This document shows positions 5,001 to 62,944 of a stretch of 64,000 nucleotides of DNA, piece after piece (the stretch's first letter is position 1; each line of letters starts with the position of its first letter). The notes beneath the pieces were generated by a model. That model had not been told where the DNA came from and ran no database searches. It saw only the letters and a program-made list of their open reading frames with translations. This stretch comes from an uncultured virus (IMG/VR IMGVR_UViG_3300025000_000080) (taxonomy: Duplodnaviria > Heunggongvirae > Uroviricota > Caudoviricetes). Location: positions 1-64,000 of IMG/VR virus record IMGVR_UViG_3300025000_000080. The stretch is one strand, 5' to 3'. A program made the translations under genes and the position numbers.

Positions 5001-5423
5001 TCAGATCTCCACCGTCGCGGTCTGGTCCACTACGACGCGGTTTGACGGCACGTTCGCGGTAATCAGTCGGTACTGGACGTCGATACTGCGCGTATTGGTA
5101 GTGGCGTCATTCTTTACGACAACCTCAGTCACCCTTACCCGTGGTTCCCACCGGCGTAATGCTTCCTCGACGTAGAACTGAGCCAAGGCATCTGTTGTCG
5201 GTCCAAGGTTGCGGTGTCTGAGCATACCCAATCTCGAACCGAACGTGTGCTGCCATGGCAATTCGCCAGCACTCAATCCGTTGGGCATAGCTGACTGAGT
5301 GCCAAGAATGTTTTCGATGCACGATTGGACTAGGGCAGCATCACCGCCGTTCACGAAGTCTTTGCCTTCTCTTCGAAATGGTGACAGCACTCCGAAGCCG
5401 AGAATCTTGCTGGCCATAATCAC
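5001..5423 (-). CDS. Baseplate wedge protein gp25/GpW family
   Basis: IENILGT..GELPW..FGSRL..ALRRWEPRVRV signature. Confidence 0.9.
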   Translation of the reverse strand: MIMASKILGFGVLSPFRREGKDFVNGGDAALVQSCIENILGTQSAMPNGLSAGELPWQHTFGSRLGMLRHRNLGPTTDALAQFYVEEALRRWEPRVRVTEVVVKNDATTNTRSIDVQYRLITANVPSNRVVVDQTATVEI

Positions 5424-25556: not shown

Positions 25557-26969
25557 TCAGACGATCACAGGCTGGAGTGTAGACCGACACAACCCGTGCA
25601 GTGGAGGGGGCCCTATGCTTTGGGAGAGGATATCGTTGACCTTATCCGTGTACTCTCCCCGGTCGTCCCTGTTCCCCATCCCTGACCGGGAGATCTCAGC
25701 GAGAACGGTGTCTGTCCCGTCCTTGCCACGGACGAATATCTCCTTCTTGCCGTCGTCGAGTTGTCTCTCTCTGACCCATGGATTCTCGTACTTGACGTCC
25801 ATCGGATCATCGAGGGACTCGAGCCCTTTGAGTAAATCAAGCGCGCGTCCAACATTAACAAACTTGCCGTCAGCCCATCTACACTGATCGCTGGTCCTCT
25901 CGTCCAGTATAGCTGTAAAAATTGCCGTCTCAATTCCAGCTTTACTGTAAGTGCTCAGGTGTCCATAGGCTTCAGCCCTCACCGTGTAGGCATTGGCCAC
26001 AACGCGATAGTAGTTTGGATTGCCTCCCCGGACCTCGAGCCATCTGGACAGGTCCTTACCGATCTCGTCACCCGATAGCCCCTGTTCGAAGCCCCGAGCG
26101 GTAATGGAGCGTGCGGCTTCACTCCATTGGGCTGAACGCTGTTTAAACTGGTCGGTCACGAAGTTGACGGTGGACTTTCGAAGGAAGTTCACCGATGCTT
26201 TGTCCACAGCGTCGAACGTGGCTGTGATGGGACCGTTCGAGGGGACCTTGCTCCCACCTGGCCCCCATTCATACTTCTTCGCGTCCCAGGCTCGTACAGC
26301 CTTGACCACGCGCATTCCGTGCTGCAGGAGTGGAGAGGCGAGTAACCCAGCGAAGGCGCCTCCTGCCTTGGTGAACCCATCGGCGATGGCTGTGATCTGC
26401 TTCCCGAGTTCGACTTCGCCCAGCGCTACCCAGTCAGTAGACTCCGCAATCTCCACGAGTTCAGCCACGGTGGCGTCTACCGTGCCCTTCGCCAACTTCG
26501 CCAGTTTCGCCACAAGCCGCTCGGTTTGCTCGTCCTGGGGGAAGATGTCATCCGCCTTCTGAATCGACGTGGTGAACCCCGCAGCGGCCATCATGACGTC
26601 GATATCAGCGATACCCGAGTTCAACCTTGCAAGGATGTCGGTGTAGTCGAGCGTGACCGCACGCTTGTAGATCGTCCCCTTGCCGTTACCCTCTACGGCG
26701 TAGGCCAGGGTAACAGCGGAATCGGGCGCAACGGCTTTCTCAGCCAGCAACTCTGCATCGACGTAGGATAGACCGGCCGCAAGACGCTCCACAGACACGA
26801 CGTCACCGTCTCGCTCTGTAACCAGCACCCATCCTTGCCGGCCCACCGTTCGCCCACCCAATGCTTCCCTGGCGTCCTTCAACGTGGCGACACATCGGAC
26901 AGGCGAAGCGACCAGATAATCTGCGTCAATTACCCGTGGTGCTGACTTGCTCAATCTGTGCATGCACAT
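25557..26969 (-). CDS. Head morphogenesis protein (SPP1 gp7/Mu gpF family)
   Basis: AILDERTSDQCRWADGK and PPLHGLCRSTL motifs; GGAGG RBS before ATG 26969. Confidence 0.85.
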   Translation of the reverse strand: MCMHRLSKSAPRVIDADYLVASPVRCVATLKDAREALGGRTVGRQGWVLVTERDGDVVSVERLAAGLSYVDAELLAEKAVAPDSAVTLAYAVEGNGKGTIYKRAVTLDYTDILARLNSGIADIDVMMAAAGFTTSIQKADDIFPQDEQTERLVAKLAKLAKGTVDATVAELVEIAESTDWVALGEVELGKQITAIADGFTKAGGAFAGLLASPLLQHGMRVVKAVRAWDAKKYEWGPGGSKVPSNGPITATFDAVDKASVNFLRKSTVNFVTDQFKQRSAQWSEAARSITARGFEQGLSGDEIGKDLSRWLEVRGGNPNYYRVVANAYTVRAEAYGHLSTYSKAGIETAIFTAILDERTSDQCRWADGKFVNVGRALDLLKGLESLDDPMDVKYENPWVRERQLDDGKKEIFVRGKDGTDTVLAEISRSGMGNRDDRGEYTDKVNDILSQSIGPPPLHGLCRSTLQPVIV

Positions 26970-36887: not shown

Positions 36888-38674
36888 CTCACCTGATCGA
36901 AAACGCTCACTGGTCGCTCGTACTCCACATCCACATCATCGCTGTCTGTCGTCATCTGTAAGCCCATGCTTCGGACTCGTAGCGCCCCGTCGTCATACGT
37001 GTCATGTGATCGTACACCTTCCTCGAGCATGTCCTCGTTCATCAGGTAGTATTCGATGAGTAGGATGATGCAGTAGACGAAGGCGTCAACGAGGTCGTCA
37101 TGGACACCGAACGGGAAGTCCCCCATCTCGGCCTGTAGATCTTCTGTCCCGGGAAGAAAGTAGACTCGGCACTGGTCCACGTATGGCTGAGTGCGGATGG
37201 CTCGGCTGATCTTGTCCCCACCCACCTTCTGGGGACGGAGCGGACGGAGCGGCAGCAGCGCCATCTCTTTCACGTACTGGCGCATCCATGTCTGGGCCGC
37301 CACCTCCTCCATACCGACGTGTTGGAGTTGATCGCGGATGGCCCAGTCGACAATCGCCCTGGCCGTCTTCTGGAGCCCTCCACGGAAGGCTGAAGACCTG
37401 AAGACGTAGATATTCAGATCTTCGCCCAGAGCCACCGATACATAGCCGTTACGGTCGTTCCGGCTCTTCTCTGTGAAGGCGAAGTCCCACGCTCCGACCG
37501 CCCCCGCCATCTCCACGTTTTCGATAACTTCCCATGTCGTAAACTGGAATTTCGTTGTATCCCAGATCCGATCATCGTCAGACATCGGCTGAAGCAAGTA
37601 GGCTCGAGCGAAGTGGATGCGAGGGAGGCGCGCGAAGCGTTTCTGAAGCCGTACTCGTCCCCATTGTTCAGGCCACACCGGACTGAACTCATCAGCGACC
37701 TCGCCGCGTGCTTCTGCCTGCTGCCTGGCCCACTCGCCACCCACCGGACGACTGAACAGAAACCAGCCCATCTCAGGGGCCTTGGCCTTCAACTCGCTAT
37801 GGAGGTCCGCTTTGTGCCATGGCGTCCCGATCCAGACGACTTTGGCCCCGTCTGCGCATTCTCGTTCAGGTAACTCGGCCAGTTGTCCGCCTCGAGCGCG
37901 TCTGTCCGGTAGCGTGTCGGGAAGAGAGTTGAAGTCGGTCTCCTCCCCGTCGTCGTTGACTGGTGAGCCCGCTGCTTCCCCGTCGTCGTCCTCTTCGACC
38001 ATCGGGAGCCAGACACCGAAGAAGGTCTCCTTTGTCGCCTCACGCATAGCCTCGGAGCGGACGGATTTGGGATTGACCACGTCATCGAATAGCAGTCGTG
38101 TGGCACGACCACCAATACCAGAGCTGTCCAGGCCGTAAGCTTCGACGCTGGCGTCCTTCGAGATGATCTTACGCTGGCAATAGATTGCGTGTTGAGTCCA
38201 CCCTGCCATGTTCGCTGGCTTCAGGTGGGGGAAGACTTCATGCACTCGTGGGTTGTGCAGAATGTGCTCTGTGATCTCGCGGACACGCTTCTTGGCTTCC
38301 GCATCACTCACGCAGATGATCTTGATGAGTTCATCCGGGTTATTGCCCAGCCAGAACAACACTCTGGCCACACACTGTGTCGTCTTGCCGGTGTCTCGAG
38401 GAAGTTCGCCAAAGATGTATTCCTGGGTATCTATGGCGGACTGGAAATCGCGATGAACTTGCGACTGGCGGACCTGATGCGGGGTTCCGTCCGGGTTCTT
38501 GCGCCGGGAGTCGGAAAAGCAATACTCGACGAAGACGTTGGTGTCATGTCGCGCCTGCTTGACCTTTCTGGCCCGCGCGACTGCGCTGATCTTCTCGAGT
38601 TCCTGAAGCTTTGCTATCTTTTCCCAACGTGTTTCCATTCCGCTTTCTGCGCCGGGGCATCCGCGATCGTGCAT
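36878..38674 (-). CDS. Terminase large subunit
   Basis: PRDTGKT, GGRATRLLFDDVV, IGTPWH..DL, WDFA, FPFGVHDDLVDA. Confidence 0.93.
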   Translation of the reverse strand: MHDRGCPGAESGMETRWEKIAKLQELEKISAVARARKVKQARHDTNVFVEYCFSDSRRKNPDGTPHQVRQSQVHRDFQSAIDTQEYIFGELPRDTGKTTQCVARVLFWLGNNPDELIKIICVSDAEAKKRVREITEHILHNPRVHEVFPHLKPANMAGWTQHAIYCQRKIISKDASVEAYGLDSSGIGGRATRLLFDDVVNPKSVRSEAMREATKETFFGVWLPMVEEDDDGEAAGSPVNDDGEETDFNSLPDTLPDRRARGGQLAELPERECADGAKVVWIGTPWHKADLHSELKAKAPEMGWFLFSRPVGGEWARQQAEARGEVADEFSPVWPEQWGRVRLQKRFARLPRIHFARAYLLQPMSDDDRIWDTTKFQFTTWEVIENVEMAGAVGAWDFAFTEKSRNDRNGYVSVALGEDLNIYVFRSSAFRGGLQKTARAIVDWAIRDQLQHVGMEEVAAQTWMRQYVKEMALLPLRPLRPQKVGGDKISRAIRTQPYVDQCRVYFLPGTEDLQAEMGDFPFGVHDDLVDAFVYCIILLIEYYLMNEDMLEEGVRSHDTYDDGALRVRSMGLQMTTDSDDVDVEYERPVSVFDQVRWM

Positions 38675-38889
38675 GTGGTAAGCATCGCCCCCATGCCTAC
38701 CATCAGTGAATAACTCAGAACCGACCCCCGCAAGACATTGATAGCCAGGTACAGTCCGGCAATCTTGGCATACCGCTTGATCGCCCGACTGTGACGGTGC
38801 CGGTGGATCTCGAATGCAACATCACTCGCTGTCGTCGGATCCCCGGGGTCCTGATACGCGCCCACCACGCTTGCGAGTTGATTTCTCAC
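38614..38889 (-). CDS. Small membrane protein (possible lysis accessory)
   Basis: Hydrophobic segments; lies between holin-like gene and TerL. Confidence 0.4.
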   Translation of the reverse strand: MRNQLASVVGAYQDPGDPTTASDVAFEIHRHRHSRAIKRYAKIAGLYLAINVLRGSVLSYSLMVGMGAMLTTCTIADAPAQKAEWKHVGKR

Positions 38890-39133
38890 GACGGATCTCC
38901 TCTTTCACCTCCTGAAGCAGTCTCCTTTCCTCCATGCCCATCTGCAGGGAGTGCTCAAGGGATCTGTTCAAGAGTTCCATTGTCTTTGAGATATGCGGGG
39001 CAAACCGTGCCCAGACTGCCCGCACCCCCAGGATGATGGAGATCAGAATCACGATGTAGGGGATGTAGTTTGGACTCGAGTTTGCAAAGGTCTTGATGAC
39101 CTCACCCAAGCCCACCGTGGTTCCCGGTGTCAT
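38822..39133 (-). CDS. Holin-like membrane protein
   Basis: One TM helix (YIPYIVILISIILGV), coiled charged tail; AGGAG RBS. Confidence 0.5.
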   Translation of the reverse strand: MTPGTTVGLGEVIKTFANSSPNYIPYIVILISIILGVRAVWARFAPHISKTMELLNRSLEHSLQMGMEERRLLQEVKEEIRREKSTRKRGGRVSGPRGSDDSE

Positions 39134-39297
39134 GTCCCGTCTCCTGTCTCAACAGTATCCCAAATGCGGCGTGTTGACAAAAATCAACACGCGTCGTGAG
39201 TGCCTAACTCTATTATCCCCAGCGTGTGGGCATGCGCAAATCTGATGCCATCGGGCAGCGTTCAGGGGTCAAATGGATGAGTTTGGTAGAAGAAAAG

Positions 39298-39334
39298 AAA
39301 AAGGGGCGACTCTGCGATAGAATCGCCCCTTTTT
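39298..39334. terminator. Bidirectional intrinsic terminator after tmRNA
   Basis: AAAAAGGGGCGA...TCGCCCCTTTTT. Confidence 0.75.
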
Positions 39335-39355
39335 GTCAACTGGGCTTGCCAGAAA

Positions 39356-39711
39356 TGGTGGAGGCGCCGATGTACCGCCCATCGGGTCCGAAAGAACTCG
39401 ACTCAAGGTGTCTACGTGCGTAGTGCTCTGATCAGTTTCGCCCTAGATCTGCAGGCACACAGTCTGCCGGGCTAGCAGGTGATATTCCCTCGTTTAGTCC
39501 TGCGCTCCACGAGGGTTTTGACTGCTGGCATTATGCCCACCTGGCCCCGCAGTCTGAACCAGGCGAACAGCCCACTAAGCGGCCTGACGGTCGTAGTCGG
39601 CGTAGTAGTCGGTGTTGTTTGCGACTATGGTTTTGAGCCTGTTTAACGAGGCGACCCACCTCTGCACGCTGCCCTGATCTACCGTTCCCCCGTCGAATCT
39701 ATTTCGCCCCC
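39356..39711 (-). ncRNA. ssrA: tmRNA, tag ANNTDYYADYDRQAA*
   Basis: 5' GGGGGCGAAATAGATTCGACGGGG; 3' CGCCTCCACCA; G3-U70 pair; ATAGTC-GCA resume context; tag at 39575-39622 ends AA-stop. Confidence 0.95.
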
Positions 39712-39728
39712 GAAACTGTAAAATGGAA

Positions 39729-39800
39729 TGCCCCCAGTAGGATTTGAACCTACGACCTGCCGGTTAAAAGCCGGCTGCTCTACCACTGAGCTATGGAAGC
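39729..39800 (-). tRNA. tRNA-Lys(UUU), CCA not encoded
   Basis: Full cloverleaf; anticodon arm GCCGG-CTTTTAA-CCGGC; GGTTCAAATCC. Confidence 0.9.
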
Positions 39801-39801
39801 G

Positions 39802-39993
39802 TTAGACCTCTTCGACCTTGATGGAGTATTTCCACCGCTCCATCTTGTCGTCAGACTCGGTTGTGATCTCGAGATGGTCAAGACCTGCCTCTTTGCCTCT
39901 CACATCCGTGACATGGAGTGCCTTACCAGACTCGGGACTGGTCAACAGAATGGACTTGAGGAAGTCGCTTTCTTTATCCACGTCGATCTCCAT
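39802..39993 (-). CDS. Small hypothetical protein between tRNAs
   Basis: 63-aa ORF exactly filling the tRNA-Glu/tRNA-Lys spacer; no clear RBS. Confidence 0.45.
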   Translation of the reverse strand: MEIDVDKESDFLKSILLTSPESGKALHVTDVRGKEAGLDHLEITTESDDKMERWKYSIKVEEV

Positions 39994-39998
39994 GTGAA

Positions 39999-40069
39999 TG
40001 ATCCCACAGGGAATTGAACCCTGGCTTCCGCCGTGAAAGAGCGGTGTCTTGCCACTAGACTATGGGACC
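39999..40069 (-). tRNA. tRNA-Glu(UUC), CCA not encoded
   Basis: GGTCCCA/TGGGATC acceptor; CCGCT-CTTTCAC-GGCGG anticodon arm; GGTTCAATTCC. Confidence 0.9.
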
Positions 40070-40157
40070 AAAGGTAGCGCCGTCGTGTTCAACGGCACTG
40101 AACTTCCGGACTCTTACCGGCTGCATGTGCAGGACTCGTGTAGCCAATCGAACAGGA

Positions 40158-40676
40158 TCACATCGAGTAACTGACCTGACATCCGCGCCGACAGTACAGA
40201 CGCGGCTTGCGGTGCAACGAGGGGATCTCGATGAAGACATCGCCCTCGGAATTCGTGTTGAAACAGATCCGGTGAGTGCGGGCGAATTGGTACGCGGCAG
40301 TCTCAGCGCTCACACCGCTGGTCAACACGGTTCCGGTCATTCGCTTCTTGCTGCCGGACTTGTGCTTGAACGTGGCCAGGGTCACTGAGTCAACGTCCGA
40401 CTCGTCATCAACATCTTCCTCAACCGACAACTCCGGACGACTCACGAGAGACAGTGCCGACACTCGAGGCCAGTAAAGCTTCGGGCGCGCCTTGCCCGGT
40501 ATCTCGCTGGTATGTTGACCATCCGCCAATATCGGCTTGACGACCTTATGGACAGCGACCTTGGCGGGCAGGACTGCTAGAGCTTCACCGGTCTTTACCT
40601 TCACATGACCGGCAGCCTGACTACTCCACTGGACCATGTCACCAAGTTGATACTGCATTTCAGCCTCCATGTTCAC
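40158..40676 (-). CDS. Hypothetical protein
   Basis: ORF with GGAGG before internal ATG; YWPRVSAL motif. Confidence 0.55.
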   Translation of the reverse strand: MNMEAEMQYQLGDMVQWSSQAAGHVKVKTGEALAVLPAKVAVHKVVKPILADGQHTSEIPGKARPKLYWPRVSALSLVSRPELSVEEDVDDESDVDSVTLATFKHKSGSKKRMTGTVLTSGVSAETAAYQFARTHRICFNTNSEGDVFIEIPSLHRKPRLYCRRGCQVSYSM

Positions 40677-40682
40677 GTTAAC

Positions 40683-40755
40683 GACCGCCGCTGAGAATCA
40701 AACCCAGGCTTCCGGTTGCGCGTCCCGGCGTGCGATCCAGCCACGCTGCAGCGGT
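40683..40755 (-). ncRNA. Degenerate tRNA-like element
   Basis: ACCGCTG/CGGCGGT acceptor and CTGGG-TTTGATT-CTCAG T arm; non-canonical anticodon loop. Confidence 0.5.
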
Positions 40756-41042
40756 GAAAGATAAGGCGGCGCTGTTCAACAAGCAGCGCCATTAAGCCCG
40801 TAGTATGGGCGCCTCATGAAAGACTCCCGGTTAACGTGCCGGGTCACGCCCTACACAGATAAGGCAGTTTCAGACACCTTACATCGGCGCTCGGATCGAA
40901 CGAGCAGCTTCCCCTGTCCGTCCCCTTCGGGCTGCGCTAATACTTCAGGTTCGGGATTCCTGAAGGCATGCCCGTAAATGCCTCACGCACATGCCGAAGA
41001 CTCCAAGTATTTAACGACGTGGGAGTCTTGGATGACCGTCTC

Positions 41043-41126
41043 TGGTGGAATCGGCCAGGATCGAACTGGCACTTGCTACACCTTGGCGCGCCGTGTAGTT
41101 GCTCTATCCGATTGAGCTACGATCCC
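41043..41126 (-). ncRNA. tRNA-like RNA with Ala identity and enlarged anticodon arm
   Basis: Acceptor GGGATCG/CGATTCC + ACCA, normal D and T arms; anticodon arm CTACAC-11nt-GTGTAG. Confidence 0.8.
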
Positions 41127-41330
41127 ATAACGCGGGCCTTTTCCAGCCCGCCAGGCTAACATTCAACACAAGGAGGCCAGTCCATAGTGCCTATCTGCGG
41201 TAATTTGCAGACATGCGGCCGCACGCAGCCTTAAGCCTAGTGCATGTCTCCGTTGGTCAAGCCAACGGCACTGACGAAGGGCGGAAAGCCGAGCCAGTGA
41301 GGATTCAAATGGAGTCGGCGCCATTTTGGA

Positions 41331-41864
41331 CTAGCGGTCGTGAACTGGCGTCTTTCTCGTTTTTAAAGCATGGCACCAGACGCATAATACTTGCAGATTT
41401 TCCAGTGAATTATGTTCACGGTTATTATCGATATGATCAACGTCTAACATTGCAGAATACTTGTCGTATCCACATTGACAACATTTCTGCCCGTATTCCC
41501 GGAGTGCACGTTCCCTGTAATAACTCTTTCCGTTTTTGTATTGTCCTGGCCGTATTTCCTCAATCCCGCCAATTCTCTGAGCCAAATCCTTGCATGCTCT
41601 GGTACAAAAGTAAAAACCATGTCTTGAATTCTTTTTCTTGCCTGTTAGTTTGACGAATTGCTTTCCACATTGTGAGCATGTGAGAGTCTCGCGGCGTTGC
41701 TTCGTCTTAGCATGGCACTTTTTGCTACAAAACTTTGCACCATTAAGTATGTGCCTTGGCAAATAAAACGTTGCTCCACATTGAGCACACACCTTAGCAT
41801 ACAGTTTCCTGAAGTAGCCATCATAGCTATCAGATGTGATGTACTCTGACTCTTCTTGCGCCAC
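41331..41864 (-). CDS. HNH endonuclease with multiple Zn-finger repeats
   Basis: CxxC..FCSxxC repeats; LDVDHIDNNREHNSLENLQVLCVWCH; visibly AT-richer than flanks. Confidence 0.9.
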   Translation of the reverse strand: MAQEESEYITSDSYDGYFRKLYAKVCAQCGATFYLPRHILNGAKFCSKKCHAKTKQRRETLTCSQCGKQFVKLTGKKKNSRHGFYFCTRACKDLAQRIGGIEEIRPGQYKNGKSYYRERALREYGQKCCQCGYDKYSAMLDVDHIDNNREHNSLENLQVLCVWCHALKTRKTPVHDR

Positions 41865-41879
41865 TGAAGTACTTTTCTG

Positions 41880-41986
41880 CTTGAACCGCTATCCTCTGGT
41901 GCCAATCTCTGTCAGGCTATGTGCGCTCCACATACAAACGTCTTGTATACTGCAGGCCAGACGTTCCCCCACTGAACTACAGCCCC
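41880..41986 (-). pseudogene. Interrupted tRNA-Ala(UGC)-like gene, 5' portion
   Basis: GGGGCTGTAGTTCAGTGGGGGAACGTCTGGCC-TGC-A, 50-nt insert, CCAGAGGATAGCGGTTCAAG, then breaks off. Confidence 0.65.
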
Positions 41987-42197
41987 GTATGCTCGTCTTT
42001 CCCGGCTGCCTGGCTCTGTCTCGTCGAGCCTTCACGCCCGCATGGGCTCAGAGAGTGCGCCACCACTCAATCTGAGGTCGGTTGCTTTGCCCCGGAGGTT
42101 ACAGGGCGCCGGTTACCATACCGCCTCCCGATGACTCATGCACAGAGAGTCGGGAGCGCTACTCTGCCGGGAGTTTCACCCGGGTGCCGAAAGAATA

Positions 42198-42311
42198 AAA
42201 GACTGGGCTGACGGTACTGGTTCCACTCAGGACAGCGCTGCTTCCACTCCGGATGTACAACTCAGCAGGAACGCCACTCAACTCAGTCACTGGATCAACC
42301 GCCCAGTCTTT
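42198..42311 (-). ncRNA. Rod-shaped ncRNA candidate
   Basis: 11-bp terminal stem AAAGACTGGGC/GCCCAGTCTTT starting at the predicted TSS. Confidence 0.55.
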
Positions 42312-42316
42312 ACCAG

Positions 42317-42360
42317 ACTGTACCATGACCCTAGATATACAGTCAACAACTATTTTAATG
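42317..42360 (-). promoter_or_regulatory. Promoter of ncRNA island: ATTAAAATA-N4-TTGACT-N18-(TGG)TACAGT
   Basis: Direct reading; shared upstream box. Confidence 0.7.
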
Positions 42361-42367
42361 ATTCGTC

Positions 42368-42841
42368 TTAAAGGTTCGGTCGACCGAACCCGAGGCAGAG
42401 CGCTCTCTTGCGGAGACGACGCGCGACATGCGAAGATTTACCACCGCTGGGAGGCGCGGTGTTGCCCTCCACCGTGACGACACAGCATGAGTTGGACATC
42501 TCGACGATACCCACATGATTGGGCTTGCCATTCCCCCGGACATCCATGAAGGCGATGTATCCGGGTTCCGGGTCGTCGACCAACCACCCGCGCTGGCGAA
42601 ACGCCTCGAGGCCGATGGCGACGGAAGCAAAGCCGTTATATCCAGGGGCTTGAAGTTCAGGAAGGGGTGTGCCCGCCTCGTCAAAACACCACGAGACGAA
42701 CATGCCGCACCAGGGCTGGCCATCCCAGTTCTGCCCAGCAGTCTCCCCGTACCATTCTCCGTACTTGGTACGATTTGAGCCGTCCGGAGCCTCCTGCATT
42801 CCGATCTCAGATATAGCTATTTCCAAAGGCGTGTTGCTCAT
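42368..42841 (-). CDS. CHAP-domain endolysin
   Basis: PWCGMFVSWC, HVGIVE, VEGNT; GGAG RBS before ATG 42841. Confidence 0.9.
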   Translation of the reverse strand: MSNTPLEIAISEIGMQEAPDGSNRTKYGEWYGETAGQNWDGQPWCGMFVSWCFDEAGTPLPELQAPGYNGFASVAIGLEAFRQRGWLVDDPEPGYIAFMDVRGNGKPNHVGIVEMSNSCCVVTVEGNTAPPSGGKSSHVARRLRKRALCLGFGRPNL

Positions 42842-42902
42842 ACGATCTCCATCATTGAAGGGTATGAGCAAAGGATAGCCTGTAAGGGCGGGAATCACAA
42901 AA

Positions 42903-43184
42903 TCAGGAGAGAGCGGGAATCAGGGCAGCAGCGATCGTGTGGAGTGCGACGGACAGGCGCTCGGACAGACTCGACCCAGCCGGGGGGAAGTGCCTGCTGA
43001 AGTTGTCCAGAGAGATGGTCCCCTTGACGTCGTCGTCGGTGACGACGCGCACGATGGGGCGAACGCACTGGGCAACCTCAACGACGTGAACGGACATGGC
43101 GCCATGAATCCAGGTGGAACCAACGACGGGAAGACCGGATTGAGTCAACATGATGTTTGCTCCTAGTGTGTGATGAACATTCAA
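42903..43184 (-). CDS. Hypothetical protein
   Basis: AGGAG RBS before internal ATG; promoter at 43193-43234. Confidence 0.5.
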   Translation of the reverse strand: MNVHHTLGANIMLTQSGLPVVGSTWIHGAMSVHVVEVAQCVRPIVRVVTDDDVKGTISLDNFSRHFPPAGSSLSERLSVALHTIAAALIPALS

Positions 43185-43249
43185 TGACTCAATTTATAAT
43201 GTTCGTTAGCGTAGCTGTCAACTATTATTTTAATGTTTCTGTGTTTAGG

Positions 43250-44161
43250 TCAATAATTCCTGATCAGGACTTCGTCGACGGCTCCACGCCCGGTGCCCTT
43301 GCAGTTGACGGAACGGATGGCGCGGACGTGGGAGATCTCAAAGCCCTTGTACAACTCGAGCACGGCAGGGTGAGCGCTGTTGCATAGGAGGAAGTTGATA
43401 GAGCGCTTCGCCAGGTCTTGGCATGCTTCAGCCAGACTTGCCTGGTGATCCATTCCGAATCCATCAGCCGTGTACTGGTCGAACGAGGCGGTCACAGAGA
43501 CAGGAACGTAGGGTGGGTCGAAGAAGATGAAGTCACCGGCTCGGGCCAGAGATGTACTGGAAAGGAAGTCGGCCTCGAGTATTTCAGCACCCTGGAGCGA
43601 CGATGACGCGGCCAGGAGGACATCTCCACGCACCACATCAGCCGTCACCTTGGATGGATCGAAGCTGACGTTGAACTCTCCCTTCTGGTTCTCCCGGAAC
43701 AGCCCGTTGAAGCATATCCGGTTCAGGAAGACGAACAGGGCCGCAAGCCTTATCGGGCTGGGTGGCGTTGAGTCGGTGAACAGCCCAAACACACCTGACC
43801 GTCTCTCGCGTACTCCACGATTGAACTCTGTACGAGCTCGCAGATAGCCCTCCAGCGTTCGCTCCTGCATGAGTCGCTCGAGTTCATCGATCACATCTTG
43901 TGGTCGGCTACGGACCATTCGATAGCAGGTGACCAGCCTATGGTTCAGGTCGGACAGATAAGCAGCTCCTTTGATCCGTCTCTCCCGGACCATGGCGAAG
44001 TAGACAGCACCTCCACCGATGAATGGCTCATGGTAGGCGTTGAACCGCTTCGGGACGAGACTCAGGATCGGCTCGAGTAGTTGGTCCTTACCACCCGCCC
44101 ACCGAAGGAACGGCCGCGGCTCAAGCCCATTTTTGCCACTAACCGTAATCGCTGCTACCAT
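43250..44161 (-). CDS. dam: Dam-family DNA adenine methyltransferase
   Basis: PFLRWAGGK, EPFIGGGAV, FNGLFRENQKGEFN, FDPPY, EVLIRNY. Confidence 0.92.
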   Translation of the reverse strand: MVAAITVSGKNGLEPRPFLRWAGGKDQLLEPILSLVPKRFNAYHEPFIGGGAVYFAMVRERRIKGAAYLSDLNHRLVTCYRMVRSRPQDVIDELERLMQERTLEGYLRARTEFNRGVRERRSGVFGLFTDSTPPSPIRLAALFVFLNRICFNGLFRENQKGEFNVSFDPSKVTADVVRGDVLLAASSSLQGAEILEADFLSSTSLARAGDFIFFDPPYVPVSVTASFDQYTADGFGMDHQASLAEACQDLAKRSINFLLCNSAHPAVLELYKGFEISHVRAIRSVNCKGTGRGAVDEVLIRNY

Positions 44162-50401: not shown

Positions 50402-51148
50402 ATGAAGTTTAAGGAAGTTCTGGCGCAACTACTTAAAGAGAAAGGGCTTTCGTCGCGTGATCTCGCCAGGTCAGTGCATATCAGCCCATCTGCACTGACG
50501 AAATATTCCCAAGGGGCAACTCCGGGACTGGATGTCGCACTCAGGATTGCCGATGCGTTGGATGTGTCACTAGACTACCTGACAACGGGAGTCGAGCCAA
50601 GGAAGAAATGCCCGGATGTTGATCATCACGCAATTATCGAGGAATTCGGTCTTGGCGAACTGGCACTACTCGCGAGTCTGGGCACGCAGGCTCCTATCTG
50701 GCAGATTACCAAGGTGCTGCTCGAGTACATTCCCCGGGCGGTCACTTTTGACGAACTACGAGCGGCACTTCCGGCGCTGAGCGAGCAGACCTTACATGCC
50801 GCACTACTGGCCATGCGGATCAAGTCCGTCGTGGTCGAGTCGAATGGTGGCTACCGCCTGGGTGACAACGTCCCCGAGTACGAAGCTCGACAGTTGGGCG
50901 ACATCGGCCAGCATGTCAAGGTGGCGCTCGATGCCTTGTTTGGCCATGTAATCCCAGCTATTGAACGCCAGGACAGCACCGGGCACCTGTTGACGATGAC
51001 AGCAGAGGTCCCCGACGATGTAGGGCGCGATCTGATTCATCGGCTTCGCGTTGAGACCCGACGTTACAGCAAGGCAGCAATGGCTAACCATGGCAACACA
51101 ACCGTGTCGGTTGTGTTAGGACTTGCAGTAGACAAGAAAAGCGACTAG
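50402..51148 (+). CDS. XRE-family HTH repressor with C-terminal wHTH-like domain
   Basis: LKEKGLSSRDLA..SALTKY..PGLDVALRIADALDVSLDYL. Confidence 0.88.
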   Translation: MKFKEVLAQLLKEKGLSSRDLARSVHISPSALTKYSQGATPGLDVALRIADALDVSLDYLTTGVEPRKKCPDVDHHAIIEEFGLGELALLASLGTQAPIWQITKVLLEYIPRAVTFDELRAALPALSEQTLHAALLAMRIKSVVVESNGGYRLGDNVPEYEARQLGDIGQHVKVALDALFGHVIPAIERQDSTGHLLTMTAEVPDDVGRDLIHRLRVETRRYSKAAMANHGNTTVSVVLGLAVDKKSD

Positions 51149-53380: not shown

Positions 53381-53737
53381 TCCAGCAAGGCACTGCTAGG
53401 AGTATGGACGAGGCGCAACCGGTCGTCAAGGACTTTTAAAATACTCTTTTACTTTTAAGCAGAGAATTATCTACCAACTGGGTGGAGATATTCGAGATAG
53501 CGAAATCTAATGGACAGCCAGATACCACTATGGCATGATCAAACGCAGTAGCCATTTCCTGCAGACGCTGCCGCTCATGCCGCTCTAGCACCAACAATAC
53601 TCGCCCGCACCCGTAGCATTTCCCGTAGCAGTGACACCTGATTCGGGACAGTAATCAGTAGCAATACGCTAACGCGACTCACTTGTAAGCCTGCGAAAGA
53701 TCGAAACAAGTGCTGTAATAGTCCAGTGTGCTTTCCC

Positions 53738-53782
53738 GATTCGTAATCAGCAGGTCGCCGGTTCGAATCCGGCCTTCGGCTT
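53738..53782 (+). other. attP core: 3' half of tRNA-Thr(CGU)
   Basis: GATTCGTAATCAGCAGGTCGCCGGTTCGAATCCGGCCTTCGGCT with no 5' half; next to integrase; CCGTAGCA repeats on both sides. Confidence 0.85.
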
Positions 53783-53793
53783 TCAACGAAATC

Positions 53794-53828
53794 AAGGGGT
53801 TGTGCCTGACTGGTGCAGCCCCTTTTTT
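53794..53828 (+). terminator. Intrinsic terminator after attP tRNA fragment
   Basis: AAGGGGTTGTGC...GTGCAGCCCCTTTTTT. Confidence 0.75.
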
Positions 53829-53871
53829 CGTTCCGGTCGCGAATCCGTAGCAGTCGCATCGGGAGGTATCC

Positions 53872-54972
53872 ATGGGCACTACCAAGCAGGGTAAGCGACT
53901 CCCACCGGGGATAATCGAGCGAGTCTACCCTACCGGACGGAAGGTCTACCGGGTCGAAGTCCGGATCAAGGGGTATGCACCCCAGGTGAAAACCTTCGAC
54001 CGCCTCCAGGACGCTAAATACTGGCAGGACACGACCAAGGCGGTCATTAGAGAAGAGAGGCTCAGACCCGATGTTGTGGCCCAGAGTCGCACCGTGGCAG
54101 ACCTGATCGACCGGTATATAGACGAGGTGCTTCCCAATAGGCCGAAGAGCGCCCGGGACACTGAGCGAGAGCTCTTCTGGTGGAAGGCGCAACTGGGAGA
54201 TGTAGCGTTGCCAGATGTCGCTGCCACCATGCTTACCCAGGCTCGAGACGATCTTGCACGAGGACTGACTCCCCGCGGTCAGGTCCGGACACCTGCCACG
54301 GTCAACCGGTACCTGGCTGCACTCAGTACCGCGTTCACCGCTGCAGTCAAGGACTGGGGATGGATGGATGCCAACCCGATGGTCAAGGTCCGAAAGCAGC
54401 GTGAACCTCGAGGCCGAACCCGGTTTTTGACCGACTCCGAGCGGGCACAGTTACTCGAGGCGGCGAAGCGTCAGAACCCGGCTATGTACCCGGTAGCAGT
54501 CCTGCTCATCTACACCGGTTGCCGGCTGTCCGAGATCATGGGCCTGCGCTGGGAACAGGTGGATATCGAGCACCGTCACCTGGTACTGCGCGAGGGGACG
54601 ACTAAGAACAGCGAACCTCGCTACGTCCCCCTAGCTGCACCTGCGCTGGGCGCAATCCGAGACTGGACGAACCATCACCGGCTACTCGGTGTGGATCTGC
54701 TCTTCCCTAGTACGATCGACACCTGTAAACCCCTGGACCTAAAGCGAGCTTGGGACGCATGCATCCGCGAGACTGGGTTACAGGGCGTCACCCGGCACAC
54801 GCTCAGACACACAGCCGCCAGCTACCTGATCATGTCCGGCGCCAGCCTCGCCGACGTGGCTGCTATTCTGGGTCACAAGTCCCTCCAGATGACCATGCGC
54901 TACTCCCATCTGTTAAACGCGCACAAGCAGGAGATCGTGGACCGCATGGCTGAGAAGTTCCCCTCCAAGTAA
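53872..54972 (+). CDS. int: Tyrosine integrase
   Basis: TGCRLSEI (R), TKN (K), HTLRH, LGHK..MTMRY. Confidence 0.95.
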   Translation: MGTTKQGKRLPPGIIERVYPTGRKVYRVEVRIKGYAPQVKTFDRLQDAKYWQDTTKAVIREERLRPDVVAQSRTVADLIDRYIDEVLPNRPKSARDTERELFWWKAQLGDVALPDVAATMLTQARDDLARGLTPRGQVRTPATVNRYLAALSTAFTAAVKDWGWMDANPMVKVRKQREPRGRTRFLTDSERAQLLEAAKRQNPAMYPVAVLLIYTGCRLSEIMGLRWEQVDIEHRHLVLREGTTKNSEPRYVPLAAPALGAIRDWTNHHRLLGVDLLFPSTIDTCKPLDLKRAWDACIRETGLQGVTRHTLRHTAASYLIMSGASLADVAAILGHKSLQMTMRYSHLLNAHKQEIVDRMAEKFPSK

Positions 54973-60926: not shown

Positions 60927-61997
60927 CTACCAGCGGGCCAAGATCTCGTTGTCCGGGTGCCATCGCTTCAAAATGGCAATGGTTTCCGGCATGTGATTCT
61001 TGAGCAGCCACAGCGCCGGGTCCGGCTCGACGGGCACGTTCATTTCCAGACACCAGCCCAGCCGCCCGAGTTGAACACCCGCCGTCAGGATATGAACCTC
61101 GTGCAGCAGTTCGGCACGATGGAGTGCTCGAGTGACGAACTGCTCCGTCAGAACGGATAATTCTCTCAGAACGGGTACATTCAGATCATGCACGTTGACC
61201 GGCTTATTGGGGACGGCGACCACCGGGGAGTCTTGGACCGGCGTCAACTCCACATACTCTGGTTCGGACTGAATTATCGACATGTCGGGCTCGAGTTCAG
61301 CCACAGCGTTGATTACGCCGGTCGACGTCGGCAGATCTTGACCATCGGGCGTGTACATGTGGGGCCAGAGGTACTGGGGCTGCTCACCGAGGAATTCGGC
61401 CACCTTCCGACGTGCGGTACGAAGGCTCCGGCTTGTGTTCATCCCGGACAGTGTTTTGATCGGGATATCGAGACACTCCGAGAGTCCTCGCCATGTCGCG
61501 ATACCGTGTTCCTTCATCGCCTGTGTCACTTTGGGATTTCCTGCCATCACTACTCTCCTTTTCTGCTTCTGCTCATCACGTTCACGCTTGAATGCCAGCC
61601 GCGTGGGTTCACACTCGGCTTTGCACTCCTCCACATCAAGAATCTTCACCTTCTTGTCGAGCTCGGCGCGCTTTTTTGCTACACCAGCCCGAAGTTTTTC
61701 GGCTACAGTTGTATCAGGCTGCTCTCGTTCTTCCTGGGGAATTTTGTCCAGAGGATCGGGCTCAGCGAACACCGGGTTTCTGACCGCCCTGGCGTCCTCA
61801 TGAGACTGCACTTCTTCAACCCATTCGCGGACGATAGAGAGGGCAGCAGCAGGCGAGTCAACCGAAGTGCTGACAGGAGAGCCATCTATCCGACAGACCC
61901 GCATATCACCCCGTCTGCGCTCGATAAAAGCCACCTTCCGCGATCCGTAGTAGTAGACTCCGTCTGACTCCACAATAAGCCTTGCCACATCTCCCAT
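60927..61997 (-). CDS. Hypothetical protein with central Cro/Ner-like HTH
   Basis: AMKEHGIATWRGLSECLDIPIKTLS..VAEFLGE..YLWP. Confidence 0.65.
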   Translation of the reverse strand: MGDVARLIVESDGVYYYGSRKVAFIERRRGDMRVCRIDGSPVSTSVDSPAAALSIVREWVEEVQSHEDARAVRNPVFAEPDPLDKIPQEEREQPDTTVAEKLRAGVAKKRAELDKKVKILDVEECKAECEPTRLAFKRERDEQKQKRRVVMAGNPKVTQAMKEHGIATWRGLSECLDIPIKTLSGMNTSRSLRTARRKVAEFLGEQPQYLWPHMYTPDGQDLPTSTGVINAVAELEPDMSIIQSEPEYVELTPVQDSPVVAVPNKPVNVHDLNVPVLRELSVLTEQFVTRALHRAELLHEVHILTAGVQLGRLGWCLEMNVPVEPDPALWLLKNHMPETIAILKRWHPDNEILARW

Positions 61998-62944
61998 TAG
62001 AACAGCCCCATCTGAACCTGGCTCTCACCATGCTCAATTGAATCCAGCACATACCGCCGCCACATCAGCGCCCACTCAAGACAATTCGCGCAGTTCTGAT
62101 GAGTGGCTATTGGGTCATGGCACAGCCGATGAGTAAACGCCTGTCCGTTGGCGATAGCTGCCCGTCGAGCTTCGAACGACCACGCCAGACTGTCGGCACT
62201 AGTCATAGAAGCCGCTGCCATCTTCAAGCCCAGTTGCTTGAAGCCGAAGCCGTGAAGACGTATGCCTTCTCGAGCAAGGGACTCCATAATCCCGGCTGCT
62301 TCATACGTTCCCTGGCGCCGGCAAACACTTCCCACACCCACCACTTTGAACTTCCTCAGATCGATTCCAGCCTTGTCGTACATCTCAAGATGTCGGAAAT
62401 ACGACCAGAGGGACCACCCTTGGATGACCGGTGCCCACGGCAGATCTGGTGCCATGGAGGAAAGTTCAAGGTACGATGCAATCGTCCGCTTCTGGTGTTC
62501 TTCCGTGGACAGACCTGTCTTCTCTCTGATTCGAGGCTCACACATCCAGTCCTGAATAGCAGCCCAGTCAAGACCGCCAATCTCCTCTGCACAGATCCGG
62601 ACTTCTTCCACGTACTGTCGAGCGGGTACCGTCCATTTACCGTGCAGATCAAGTTCCTGAAATCCACCAGAGTCCAGCGCCCAGCGAGTGACAGCACGCC
62701 GCCACGGCTTGCGACTTTTGACCGGCAAGACGCACCCGTCCCCATCTACTGCAACGGGAACCCATCGCCCCGATGCGTCGAGGCGCATATCAATACGGAT
62801 GACTCGGGAGTCAGGTGCTTGTGGGCCTTTTAATTTAGAAAGTCGCAACGGATTCAGTGTTCTCCGGCTGACGAACAAGGGAACACCAATCAGTCGTTGG
62901 TCGAACAGCCATCCCGTCTGATGAGTCCCCAGGTAAAACCTCAT
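61997..62944 (-). CDS. DpdA-like / TGT-fold deazaguanine DNA insertion protein
   Basis: WALDSGGF, QDWMCEP, PVIQGW, VGVGSVCRR, LHGFG, SADSLAWS. Confidence 0.8.
   Translation of the reverse strand: MRFYLGTHQTGWLFDQRLIGVPLFVSRRTLNPLRLSKLKGPQAPDSRVIRIDMRLDASGRWVPVAVDGDGCVLPVKSRKPWRRAVTRWALDSGGFQELDLHGKWTVPARQYVEEVRICAEEIGGLDWAAIQDWMCEPRIREKTGLSTEEHQKRTIASYLELSSMAPDLPWAPVIQGWSLWSYFRHLEMYDKAGIDLRKFKVVGVGSVCRRQGTYEAAGIMESLAREGIRLHGFGFKQLGLKMAAASMTSADSLAWSFEARRAAIANGQAFTHRLCHDPIATHQNCANCLEWALMWRRYVLDSIEHGESQVQMGLF

Follow-up and report, generated by a model that had tools for sequence, protein, structure and literature searches.

A tRNA-Shaped Gene with a Remodelled, Palindromic Anticodon Arm in a Myovirus Genome: a Candidate Non-Decoding Scaffold RNA

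Why would a phage carry a gene that retains the body of an alanine transfer RNA (tRNA) and has no anticodon to be read? This question is raised by TL1, an 84-nucleotide (nt) element in a 64,000-nt stretch of DNA from an uncultured member of the Caudoviricetes (positions 1 to 64,000 of IMG/VR record IMGVR_UViG_3300025000_000080, a record of 73 kb; hereafter the window). A second IMG/VR record, G001 (137,577 bp), represents the same phage at 99.9% identity, with TL1 and its flanks identical. In the present study, TL1 is tentatively interpreted as a non-decoding scaffold RNA derived from tRNA-Ala, a reading to which we assign a probability of roughly 45%. Judged by its sequence, TL1 is one instance of a recurrent phage design in which a tRNA body carries an expanded anticodon arm with a palindrome. 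The element and its parts are as follows.

41043..41126, minus strand: TL1, an 84-nt tRNA-shaped gene (Rfam tRNA model, sequence reading and cloverleaf energy)
41076..41098, minus strand: remodelled anticodon arm, a 6-base-pair (bp) stem (41098-93 / 41081-76) with an 11-nt loop (41092-82)
41085..41092, no strand assigned: perfect 8-nt palindrome GGCGCGCC in the TL1 loop, abutting the 5' stem strand and followed by AAG

The tRNA body of TL1 and its remodelled arm

The first-pass annotation of this locus, which was made from the letters alone, described a complete acceptor stem with G3-U70, A73, an encoded CCA and intact D and T arms, all of which are correct on the minus strand. The acceptor stem (41126-41120 / 41053-47) has 7/7 pairs, including G3:U70 and G2:C71 (with G1:C72), and is followed by the discriminator A73 at 41046 and the encoded CCA at 41045-43, while the D arm (GCTC/GAGC) and the T arm (GCCAG-TTCGATC-CTGGC) are both intact. 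On reading the sequence, the nucleotides of the tertiary contacts are complete (U8, A14, A15:U48, G18 G19, A21, G46, U54 U55 C56 and A58), and 22/22 stem pairs are present when the 6 in the remodelled anticodon arm are counted. TL1 scored 46.1 bits against the Rfam tRNA model (RF00005), for which the gathering score is 29, with E-values of 7e-8 in a 3.7-kb search and 3e-10 per record, a match far beyond chance. In the Rfam alignment, A27.C43 is the sole non-standard pair, and 15 nt are placed where 7 are expected for the loop. TL1 was missed both by the default gathering run of Rfam and by default ARAGORN. The cloverleaf has an energy of -27.0 kcal/mol versus -27.1 kcal/mol for the minimum-energy fold; fold z-scores were not significant for TL1 alone (-1.59) or for the 654-nt intergenic stretch (-1.58).

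Pseudogenes of tRNAs are recognized by scattered disruptive changes in stems and conserved loops, and TL1 has none outside the anticodon arm; a very recent single disabling event may still have occurred. The view that everything except the anticodon loop is conserved thus holds in the sense that the body is intact, and does not hold for conservation itself, because no homologue of TL1 was found in the collections searched.

Alanyl-tRNA synthetase (AlaRS) reads G3:U70 and A73 and ignores the anticodon, and the identity set of tRNA-Ala, in work attributed to Hou and Schimmel and to McClain and Foss, reportedly consists of G3:U70, A73 and G2:C71, each of which is found in TL1. A scan for the acceptor stem of TL1 with A73 in one genome per prokaryote species returned 8 places: ARAGORN called tRNA-Ala (UGC or GGC) at 5/8, visual inspection of a sixth shows a GGC anticodon loop together with a degenerate T loop, and the other 2/8 are not tRNAs. 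The organisms were Polyangiaceae and Labilithrix metagenome-assembled genomes (mostly Myxococcota) and one such genome labelled Thermoplasmata. Since this acceptor stem, as far as tRNAs are concerned, is otherwise found only in tRNA-Ala genes, the alanine identity of TL1 appears to be inherited rather than due to a chance G.U pair, and the alanine assignment made from G3-U70 in the first pass is credible by descent. Alanylation of TL1 is plausible on these features, while the EF-Tu binding and the decoy or Ala-donor roles put forward in the first pass are conjectural. No canonical tRNA-Ala was found in the phage by ARAGORN or Rfam, and a Pfam search of 147/175 phage open reading frames (ORFs) and 14 more revealed no aminoacyl-tRNA-dependent transferase (Fem, MprF-type or L/F-transferase), AlaRS or RNA ligase, and no SmpB, RtcB or reverse transcriptase domains.

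The remodelled arm was also described accurately in the first pass, as a 6-bp stem CTACAC/GTGTAG with an 11-nt loop. The stem has 7 bp if the A.C pair is counted, the arm is 2 bp longer than normal, and the loop, GGCGCGCCAAG, does not contain any U. If AAG were removed, stem, palindrome and stem would form a perfect 20-nt palindrome. The arm does not belong to a repeated element, as no other copy was found in the 137-kb genome, and an inverted-repeat scan of 40600-42400 detected nothing at the settings used.

As a separate observation, the 11 nt at L030:1829-1839 (G001 61829-61839), outside the window, are perfectly complementary to the TL1 loop and stand at the start of two divergent, overlapping ORFs, one encoding an HTH_3 regulator. 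This site was dropped, the chance of such a match being estimated at ~0.2, given 7 copies of GGCGCGCC in the whole phage genome.

A decoding tRNA has a 5-bp anticodon stem, a 7-nt loop, U33, an anticodon at 34-36 and a purine at 37, and the arm of TL1 does not conform to this plan. We removed in silico every contiguous segment between the D and T arms, at all positions and lengths, and counted as a success any product in which a 5-bp stem (>=4 pairs) carried a 7-nt loop with U33 and a purine at 37. For TL1 there were 0 solutions, and it is not an intron-containing tRNA by this measure. Considering that U33 is missing, that no anticodon can be placed, that the arm is 2 bp too long and that no excision restores it, TL1 cannot decode, which bears out the earlier remark that it has no canonical anticodon.

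The opposite possibility, in which TL1 is a working decoder through a short unconventional intron, as a tRNA-Leu(CAA), or through a reading of the enlarged loop with a central CGC, is highly improbable. ARAGORN with introns allowed does give such a model ('tRNA-Leu(caa)' with a 6-nt intron), the alanine anticodon CGC is present at loop positions 5-7 of 11, and phage tRNAs with 'enigmatic introns' have been published for the Lak megaphages, as far as the accessible part of that report shows (Devoto et al. 2019, PMC6784885). However, the spliced loop of the ARAGORN model is CCCAAGG, again without U33, no RtcB, RNA ligase or splicing endonuclease domain was detected in the 147/175 ORFs, and the arm exceeds that of any decoding tRNA by 2 bp. 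Stems of at most 6 bp, with 7-nt loops, are recorded in the available portion of a review of natural non-canonical tRNAs (PMC7609411).

Recurrence and predicted pairing of palindromic arms

A search of phage genomes for tRNA-like genes with the same expanded arm had been suggested in the first pass; the design proved to recur, in unrelated viral contigs and in cultured actinophages, while no homologue of the arm sequence of TL1 itself was found in the collections searched. Our scan of viral contigs asked for a class-I body that is 4-11 nt longer than usual between A14 and G53 and ends in U70-C71-C72-A73-CCA; it yielded 24 loci and 15 distinct sequences. Two of the 15 (5 loci) are the 3' end of transfer-messenger RNA (tmRNA) and 1/15 is not tRNA-like by Rfam, while the other 12 (18 loci) scored 35-57 bits with the Rfam tRNA model and have the insertion in the anticodon loop. 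A perfect palindrome is present in the expanded arm of 5/12 elements at a length of >=8 nt and of 3/12 at >=10 nt. Dinucleotide shuffling gave means of 1.34 and 0.35, respectively, and the observed counts were reached by 0.5% and 0.4% of 5000 shuffles, values that are indicative only because the palindromes had been seen before testing and the pattern is narrow. Position 3:70 is G3:U70 in 6/12 and A3:U70 in 5/12, with U70 forced by the pattern. The excision test left 10 of 11 other elements tested without a canonical arm. The exception is L056, a 77-kb IMG/VR contig, in which cutting 13 nt including the palindrome leaves a GUA (Tyr) loop on a G3:U70 body. Neither L056 nor L041 matched any GenBank phage.

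Normal-length tRNAs matching the same 3' pattern served as controls. Among the matches listed, 73 are distinct; palindromes of >=8 nt were found in 4/73 and of >=10 nt in 0/73, all four being CTTGCAAG of tRNA-Ala(UGC) loops, and 6-nt palindromes in 27/73. Self-complementarity is a property of the normal tRNA-Ala(UGC) anticodon loop, a fact that may bear on how palindromic arms arise. These counts have to be weighed in favor of the main rival explanation, which we take seriously as a possibility: TL1 may be a recently disabled tRNA-Ala, a pseudo-tRNA whose RNA, if made, is functionless, and which was inactivated by one complex mutation in a quasi-palindromic arm, such as an intrastrand template switch or the repair of a break provoked by the HNH endonuclease encoded nearby. 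The remainder of the gene would then have had too little time to decay. Because their loops are already palindromic, the anticodon arms of tRNA-Ala are plausible hot spots for errors that extend a palindrome, and expanded forms are a minority, with 18 tRNA-like loci versus at least 121 normal ones under the same pattern. The structure of the arm speaks against such an event, in that no single excision or simple inverted duplication restores a canonical arm and the new arm forms a perfect 6-bp helix.

A further argument against gene death as the general origin of these arms comes from cultured actinophages. The element of contig L054 has full-length matches, at 75-81% identity, to the 'tRNA-Pro' of Microbacterium phage PrincePhergus and the 'tRNA-Val' of Gordonia phage CherryTomatoes, and the family reaches 21 Gordonia phage records. 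Nine members were aligned (alignment A4): PrincePhergus, CherryTomatoes, Miskis, WilliamBoone, PhinkBoden, Smoothie and BrutonGaster, together with contigs L046 and L054; such elements are also present in the Gordonia phages ClubL, Bachita and Cucurbita. The element is labelled 'tRNA-Ala' in Miskis and WilliamBoone, 'tRNA-Leu' in BrutonGaster and 'tRNA-OTHER, Undet, score 32.86' in Smoothie and others, so that GenBank holds these elements under five labels (Ala, Leu, Val, Pro and OTHER) or under none. Their centre consists of a 2-3-bp stem, a perfect 8-10-nt palindrome and an unpaired 11-13-nt tail, mostly with AAAACAGG. The palindrome is perfect and in the same place in 9/9 aligned members, in six different sequences:

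GGTGCGCACC: Miskis, WilliamBoone and L046
GGTGCACC: PhinkBoden and Smoothie
GGGATCCC: BrutonGaster
GTGCGCAC: CherryTomatoes
GTCGGCCGAC: PrincePhergus
GTCGCGCGAC: L054

The differences among them are symmetric, one being a 2-nt central deletion and another a central CG-to-GC swap, as expected from a constraint on self-complementarity. Among the Gordonia phages, an alignment is possible over the element and its neighboring tRNA-Trp and breaks down in the 5' flanks, which suggests that the element is under purifying selection. Since this family keeps the design, palindromic arms are not generally the mark of dead genes. None of the family elements could be spliced to a canonical arm in the excision test. 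Three members (L054, L046 and PrincePhergus) have both G3:U70 and CCA; Finny, which is syntenic with PrincePhergus, shows a truncated arm instead. Miskis also carries, just upstream of its palindromic element (L084:40-125), a second, unannotated tRNA-shaped sequence with an over-long central region.

The palindromic arm of TL1 is predicted to pair with itself. In the RNAcofold model, two copies form a 20-bp helix from which both AAG segments bulge, and the predicted gain is -19.3 to -19.5 kcal/mol, versus a mean of -7.5 and a minimum of -14.2 kcal/mol for 105 normal viral tRNAs, and -3.2 and -3.4 kcal/mol for the arms of the phage's own tRNA-Lys and tRNA-Glu. The gain lies beyond the control extreme in 7/11 palindromic elements.

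Three observations from the viral contigs stand apart from this argument. In a 103-kb contig, a GOLLD RNA (314 bits) and a tmRNA (82 bits) are separated by 3.4 kb (L059:1194-1601 (+) and 5001-5398 (-)), and near-identical copies are present in four further contigs. A viral tRNA array includes a tRNA with a CUA anticodon at L068:5162-5237 (-), called tRNA-Pyl by ARAGORN, that might suppress amber codons. The same array also contains a TnpB gene (L068:3538-4656 (-)).

The RNA-gene block around TL1 and the phage that carries it

On the minus strand, the order of genes is endolysin, an orphan tRNA half, the HNH gene (41864-41331), 204 nt, TL1, 366 nt, ORF172, tRNA-Glu, ORF63, tRNA-Lys, tmRNA, a terminator (39334-39298), ORF103 and TerL. 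The features of this block are listed below.

41950..41986, minus strand: orphan 5' half of a tRNA-Ala(UGC)-like gene, identified by eye, upstream of the HNH gene
41331..41864, minus strand: HNH endonuclease gene, 204 nt upstream of TL1 (phrog_1271, E 6e-21)
40889..40905, minus strand: TL3, an isolated canonical T arm (5-bp stem, TTCGATC loop), from sequence reading
40683..40755, minus strand: TL2, a degenerate 73-nt tRNA-like element (ARAGORN at a relaxed threshold)
39998..40070, minus strand: tRNA-Glu(UUC), ARAGORN/Rfam, no encoded CCA, followed by TTC
39729..39800, minus strand: tRNA-Lys(UUU), ARAGORN/Rfam, no encoded CCA, followed by TTC
39356..39711, minus strand: complete one-piece tmRNA (Rfam tmRNA, 132.3 bits), with G3:U70 and an encoded CCA
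39298..39334, minus strand: strong intrinsic-terminator-like hairpin (16 pairs and a T run), which closes the RNA gene block

The loop palindrome, the HNH gene with the broken tRNA-Ala, the neighboring tRNA remnants and the tmRNA are observations that go beyond the first-pass annotation. The HNH gene product scored 19.8 bits against Pfam HNH, just under the cut-off. The orphan half comprises the 5' strands of the acceptor and anticodon stems, U8 A9, the D arm and a UGC-containing loop, after which it ends; its first 16 nt are 15/16 identical to the 5' ends of 9 viral U70-CCA Ala-type tRNAs, and no matching 3' acceptor strand was found within 38600-43500. TL3 is likely a remnant of another tRNA. 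Counting both strands, the 137-kb genome has 4 copies of the 9-mer GTTCGATCC, and TL1 and TL3 account for two of them, 165 nt apart. ARAGORN gave TL3 only a weak class-II model at a relaxed threshold. TL2 has kept a 7-bp acceptor and a T arm, its D arm has decayed, its T loop is TTTGATT, and it has C33 and no CCA; it scored 21.3 bits (E 0.058) against the Rfam mascRNA family, which is tRNA-like. The Rfam tRNA model did not match TL2, TL3 or the orphan half, each of which is individually weak, and other RNA families gave only sub-threshold noise in the flanks of TL1 (Rfam). Taken together, the pieces show that the tRNA cluster has been rearranged, the HNH gene probably helping; all three, within 900 nt, illustrate how a decayed tRNA gene looks in this genome, and against them the flawless body of TL1 stands out.

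The two ordinary tRNAs lie ~1 kb downstream of TL1, and both are followed by TTC, so that the statement of the first pass that they lack CCA is accurate. TL1 does encode CCA, unlike these working tRNAs of the phage, which speaks against a disabled gene. A 197-aa protein encoded outside the window in G001 (L029:17567-18160 (+)) matches the PolyA_pol head domain with a borderline score of 23 bits, which is at the cut-off. The protein may be a small nucleotidyltransferase or a CCA-adding enzyme, an assignment that would be in keeping with phage tRNAs without CCA. A 63-codon ORF at 39802-39993 (-) fills the gap between tRNA-Glu and tRNA-Lys, starting 5 nt past the former and stopping one base before the latter. 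A consensus scan found no promoter or terminator near TL1 or between TL1 and the terminator of the block. ARAGORN did not call the tmRNA; its tag, read by eye from the Rfam alignment, is ANNTDYYADYDRQAA and ends in QAA versus the usual LAA. TL1 itself was considered as a tmRNA and ruled out, as it is 84 nt long and has no coding part, and the actual tmRNA is that at 39356-39711.

The neighboring nuclease gene raises a further explanation, in which the DNA palindrome matters and not the RNA: GGCGCGCC would be a recognition, immunity or control site for the HNH homing endonuclease or for a symmetric DNA-binding protein, and would sit by chance in a tRNA-Ala copy that was brought or altered by a nuclease cassette. 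Nuclease cassettes can lodge in phage tRNA genes, T4 SegB being an example, and the order of HNH gene, broken tRNA-Ala half and complete Ala-type gene resembles such an arrangement; a perfect palindrome without a spacer is also what a dimeric DNA-binding protein prefers. Nevertheless, a Pfam search of 58 ORFs detected a nuclease domain (HNH, GIY-YIG or other) within 2.2 kb of the element at 0/10 other viral loci, and there is no such nuclease among the annotated neighbors of the element in PrincePhergus, CherryTomatoes and the Gordonia CQ phages. Moreover, the palindrome of the actinophage family changes its sequence and keeps its symmetry, which is more in line with base pairing than with an invariant site for a protein, and the window shows no enrichment or avoidance of GGCGCGCC (4 sites versus 2.03 expected). 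We consider this explanation quite unlikely.

Regarding the reality of the sequence, the first pass had allowed for an assembly error. The TL1 stretch is identical in contigs from 4 runs, 3 samples and 1 study, with a depth of 10-13 and no variant. Together with the second contig, this excludes an assembly slip; the lineages are not independent because the 4 runs may include the source sample. Relative to the window, G001 is a circular permutation whose ends overlap by ~120 bp (window 26241-26366), so that the genome, at ~137.4 kb, is probably complete, despite being listed as linear with a completeness of 87%.

Genes for a sheath, tape measure, baseplate, portal and TerL identify this groundwater phage as a myovirus. 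Within 53712-54972 (+) of the window, a stretch resembling tRNA-Thr(CGT) (Rfam 22 bits; a 70-nt gene by ARAGORN) directly precedes a tyrosine integrase gene, with a terminator-like hairpin between them, and is likely an attP overlapping a host tRNA-Thr. From this integrase/attP arrangement and a CI-type repressor gene at 50402-51148, the 137-kb myovirus is temperate. It also carries a TnpB gene outside the window, and a DNA-modification set (window 61997-62944 (-), G001 L030-L031) that includes DpdA (232 bits), Mom, Dam, Dcm and N4/N6 methylases, to which three PAPS-reductase/DUF3440 proteins, a radical-SAM-like protein and two small GNATs are added.

Relatives of the phage and of TL1 were sought in several ways. 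Patterns for the exact 23-nt arm, for the D arm/T loop and for the acceptor returned, from viral contigs, only the same phage and one ordinary tRNA-Arg. The 1-kb region of TL1 did not match any GenBank phage, and TL1 alone gave half-tRNA matches only, at a coverage of <=36% and to many isotypes. Searches with TerL revealed one near-identical contig and relatives at 48-63% identity in Logan or ENA assemblies. The relatives from the Joint Genome Institute (L011, L012 and L005) have no tRNA or tmRNA, and portal and TerL alone are common with the phage. When a Myxococcota host was considered, TerL matched only 2 of 401 genomes, at 36-41% identity over its N-terminal third.

Proposed role of TL1 and comparison with known systems

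If TL1 is a scaffold RNA, the following course of events may be proposed. TL1 would be transcribed with the minus-strand block HNH - TL1 - ORF172 - tRNA-Glu - tRNA-Lys - tmRNA, up to the terminator at 39334-39298, excised by RNase P and 3' processing, the latter eased by the encoded CCA, and folded into the L shape. It would then be alanylated, as a by-product or as a part of its role, a step we infer from the fact that AlaRS reads G3:U70 and A73 and not the anticodon. The active part would be the palindromic arm, which may pair with a second copy in an extended duplex of ~20 bp with two AAG bulges, or may bind a symmetric partner, so that a tRNA-binding factor would be occupied by a stable RNA decoy or sponge. 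Pairing with a copy or with a symmetric partner is favored because the central four loop bases of a hairpin do not need to be self-complementary. Our best guess from this model is a decoy or sponge for a symmetric tRNA-binding factor. A wider proposal, which we regard as doubtful, is that phages of several unrelated lineages encode tRNA-scaffold RNAs with a self-complementary arm, which would dimerize head to head, would also be aminoacylated in the Ala-type members, and would serve as decoys or sponges for symmetric host factors, such as the dimeric anticodon nucleases of anti-phage defence. If so, they would constitute a previously undescribed class of RNA, one open to testing in cultured Gordonia and Microbacterium phages.

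Several findings weigh against the scaffold reading. TL1 is a singleton, its sole other copy being in the 99.9% identical phage, and no conservation or covariation can be read from it. The one relative with readable sequence upstream of terL (54% TerL identity) has no tRNA, tmRNA or shared gene there. No RNA runs containing the TL1 locus are listed, and the contigs with TL1 are of DNA only. The tRNA debris beside the HNH gene fits gene death equally well. With regard to the recurrence, the palindrome signal is post hoc and its set came from a narrow exact pattern that forces U70 and CCA; 7/12 expanded elements have no palindrome of >=8 nt; and the dimer gain of 4/11 palindromic elements is within the control range, minimum-energy dimers moreover ignoring three-dimensional constraints. 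Instead of G3:U70, CherryTomatoes has G3:C70 and the Gordonia CQ-cluster phages have C3:G70, and CCA is encoded in neither; because both features vary within a homologous family, charging may be irrelevant. Finally, the arm of TL1 could not be aligned with that of the family (alignment A3) and has no sequence homology to it; its stem is 6 bp versus 2-3 bp, and its tail is AAG versus 11-13 nt with AAAACAGG. When palindromic-arm look-alikes are defined as a class, TL1 has the Rfam tRNA body with an insertion in the anticodon loop, and a palindrome of >=8 nt abutting the 5' strand with an unpaired purine-rich tail (GGCGCGCC, AAG), the tail being far shorter, and it lacks arm homology including the AAAACAGG-type tail. 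The likeness of TL1 to the actinophage family is, on alignment, analogous and not homologous.

A recently disabled tRNA-Ala remains a serious rival because TL1 is a singleton without a diverged homologue, because the HNH gene lies 204 nt away amid broken tRNAs (the orphan tRNA-Ala(UGC) half, TL3 and TL2), and because tRNA-Ala loops are naturally palindromic; the absence of the RNA island upstream of terL in the readable relative is also in line with it. The scaffold reading draws on the intact body, on an arm that no simple event would produce from a canonical one, and on the same design being apparently maintained by selection in the actinophages. The recurrence points to an unrecognized kind of small phage RNA, although TL1, as a single copy, could still be a recent relic.

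The usual view of phage tRNA genes is that they act as codon supplements or replace tRNAs cleaved by host defences. Recurrent non-decoding tRNA bodies, if true, would be a third phage use of the tRNA fold, as a stable, processing-competent scaffold that displays an RNA module. Since the same design is present in cultured, genetically tractable actinophages, expression, charging, dimerization and deletion can be tested directly. In GenBank, these genes are now entered under five different labels that are wrong or empty. If the palindromes instead mark a way in which tRNA genes die, they would offer annotators a simple signature for distinguishing dead from live viral tRNA genes.

Non-decoding tRNA look-alikes are already known, namely tmRNA, the tRNA-Other of Bacillus cereus (PMC3399842) and the Y RNAs (PMC4201824), the latter two as described in the accessible parts of these sources. 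Nothing similar to an 11-nt loop without U is included in the available portion of the review of non-canonical tRNAs (PMC7609411), and no discussion of the 'tRNA-OTHER' genes was found in the accessible text of the Gordonia phage paper (PMC5559632). In the full texts searched, which did not extend to subscription journals and supplements, we found no description of palindrome-bearing anticodon arms or of the actinophage elements.

Among these look-alikes, the pseudo-tRNA 'tRNA-Other' of B. cereus is tRNA-shaped and non-translational and has a cellular effect; unlike TL1, it is chromosomal and lies beside a genomic island, and no palindromic arm is reported for it in the part of the article available (PMC3399842). 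The tRNAs of the Lak megaphages, according to the accessible part of their description, resemble TL1 in being enlarged in the anticodon region and unclassifiable at standard bacterial settings, whereas, with their inserts interpreted as introns, they retain an anticodon that can be assigned (PMC6784885).

TL1 shares with canonical bacterial and phage tRNA-Ala the class-I cloverleaf, G1:C72, G2:C71, G3:U70 and A73, and differs from it in having no 7-nt loop, U33 or readable NGC anticodon, in an arm that is 2 bp longer, and in the silence of default gene finders. As in the actinophage 'tRNA-OTHER / Undet' and mis-called tRNAs, its palindrome abuts the 5' strand, a purine-rich 3' tail follows, and the arm cannot be spliced; unlike TL1, those elements have a 2-3-bp stem and an 11-13-nt tail with a AAAACAGG-like motif, and several have no G3:U70 and CCA. 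The retroviral dimerization initiation site is a GC-rich, self-complementary palindrome in a hairpin loop with purine flanks. The loop palindrome of TL1 is likewise GC-rich and flanked by purines and is predicted to form an extended duplex; its dimer is a thermodynamic prediction, in the context of a tRNA body and a DNA phage. The tRNA-like domain of tmRNA, a copy of which lies 1.3 kb downstream in the same block, is also comparable: both have the alanine acceptor with G3:U70, an encoded CCA and no anticodon. While tmRNA has pseudoknots and a tag reading frame and requires SmpB in place of an anticodon arm, TL1, in 84 nt, has a full D arm and a closed hairpin.

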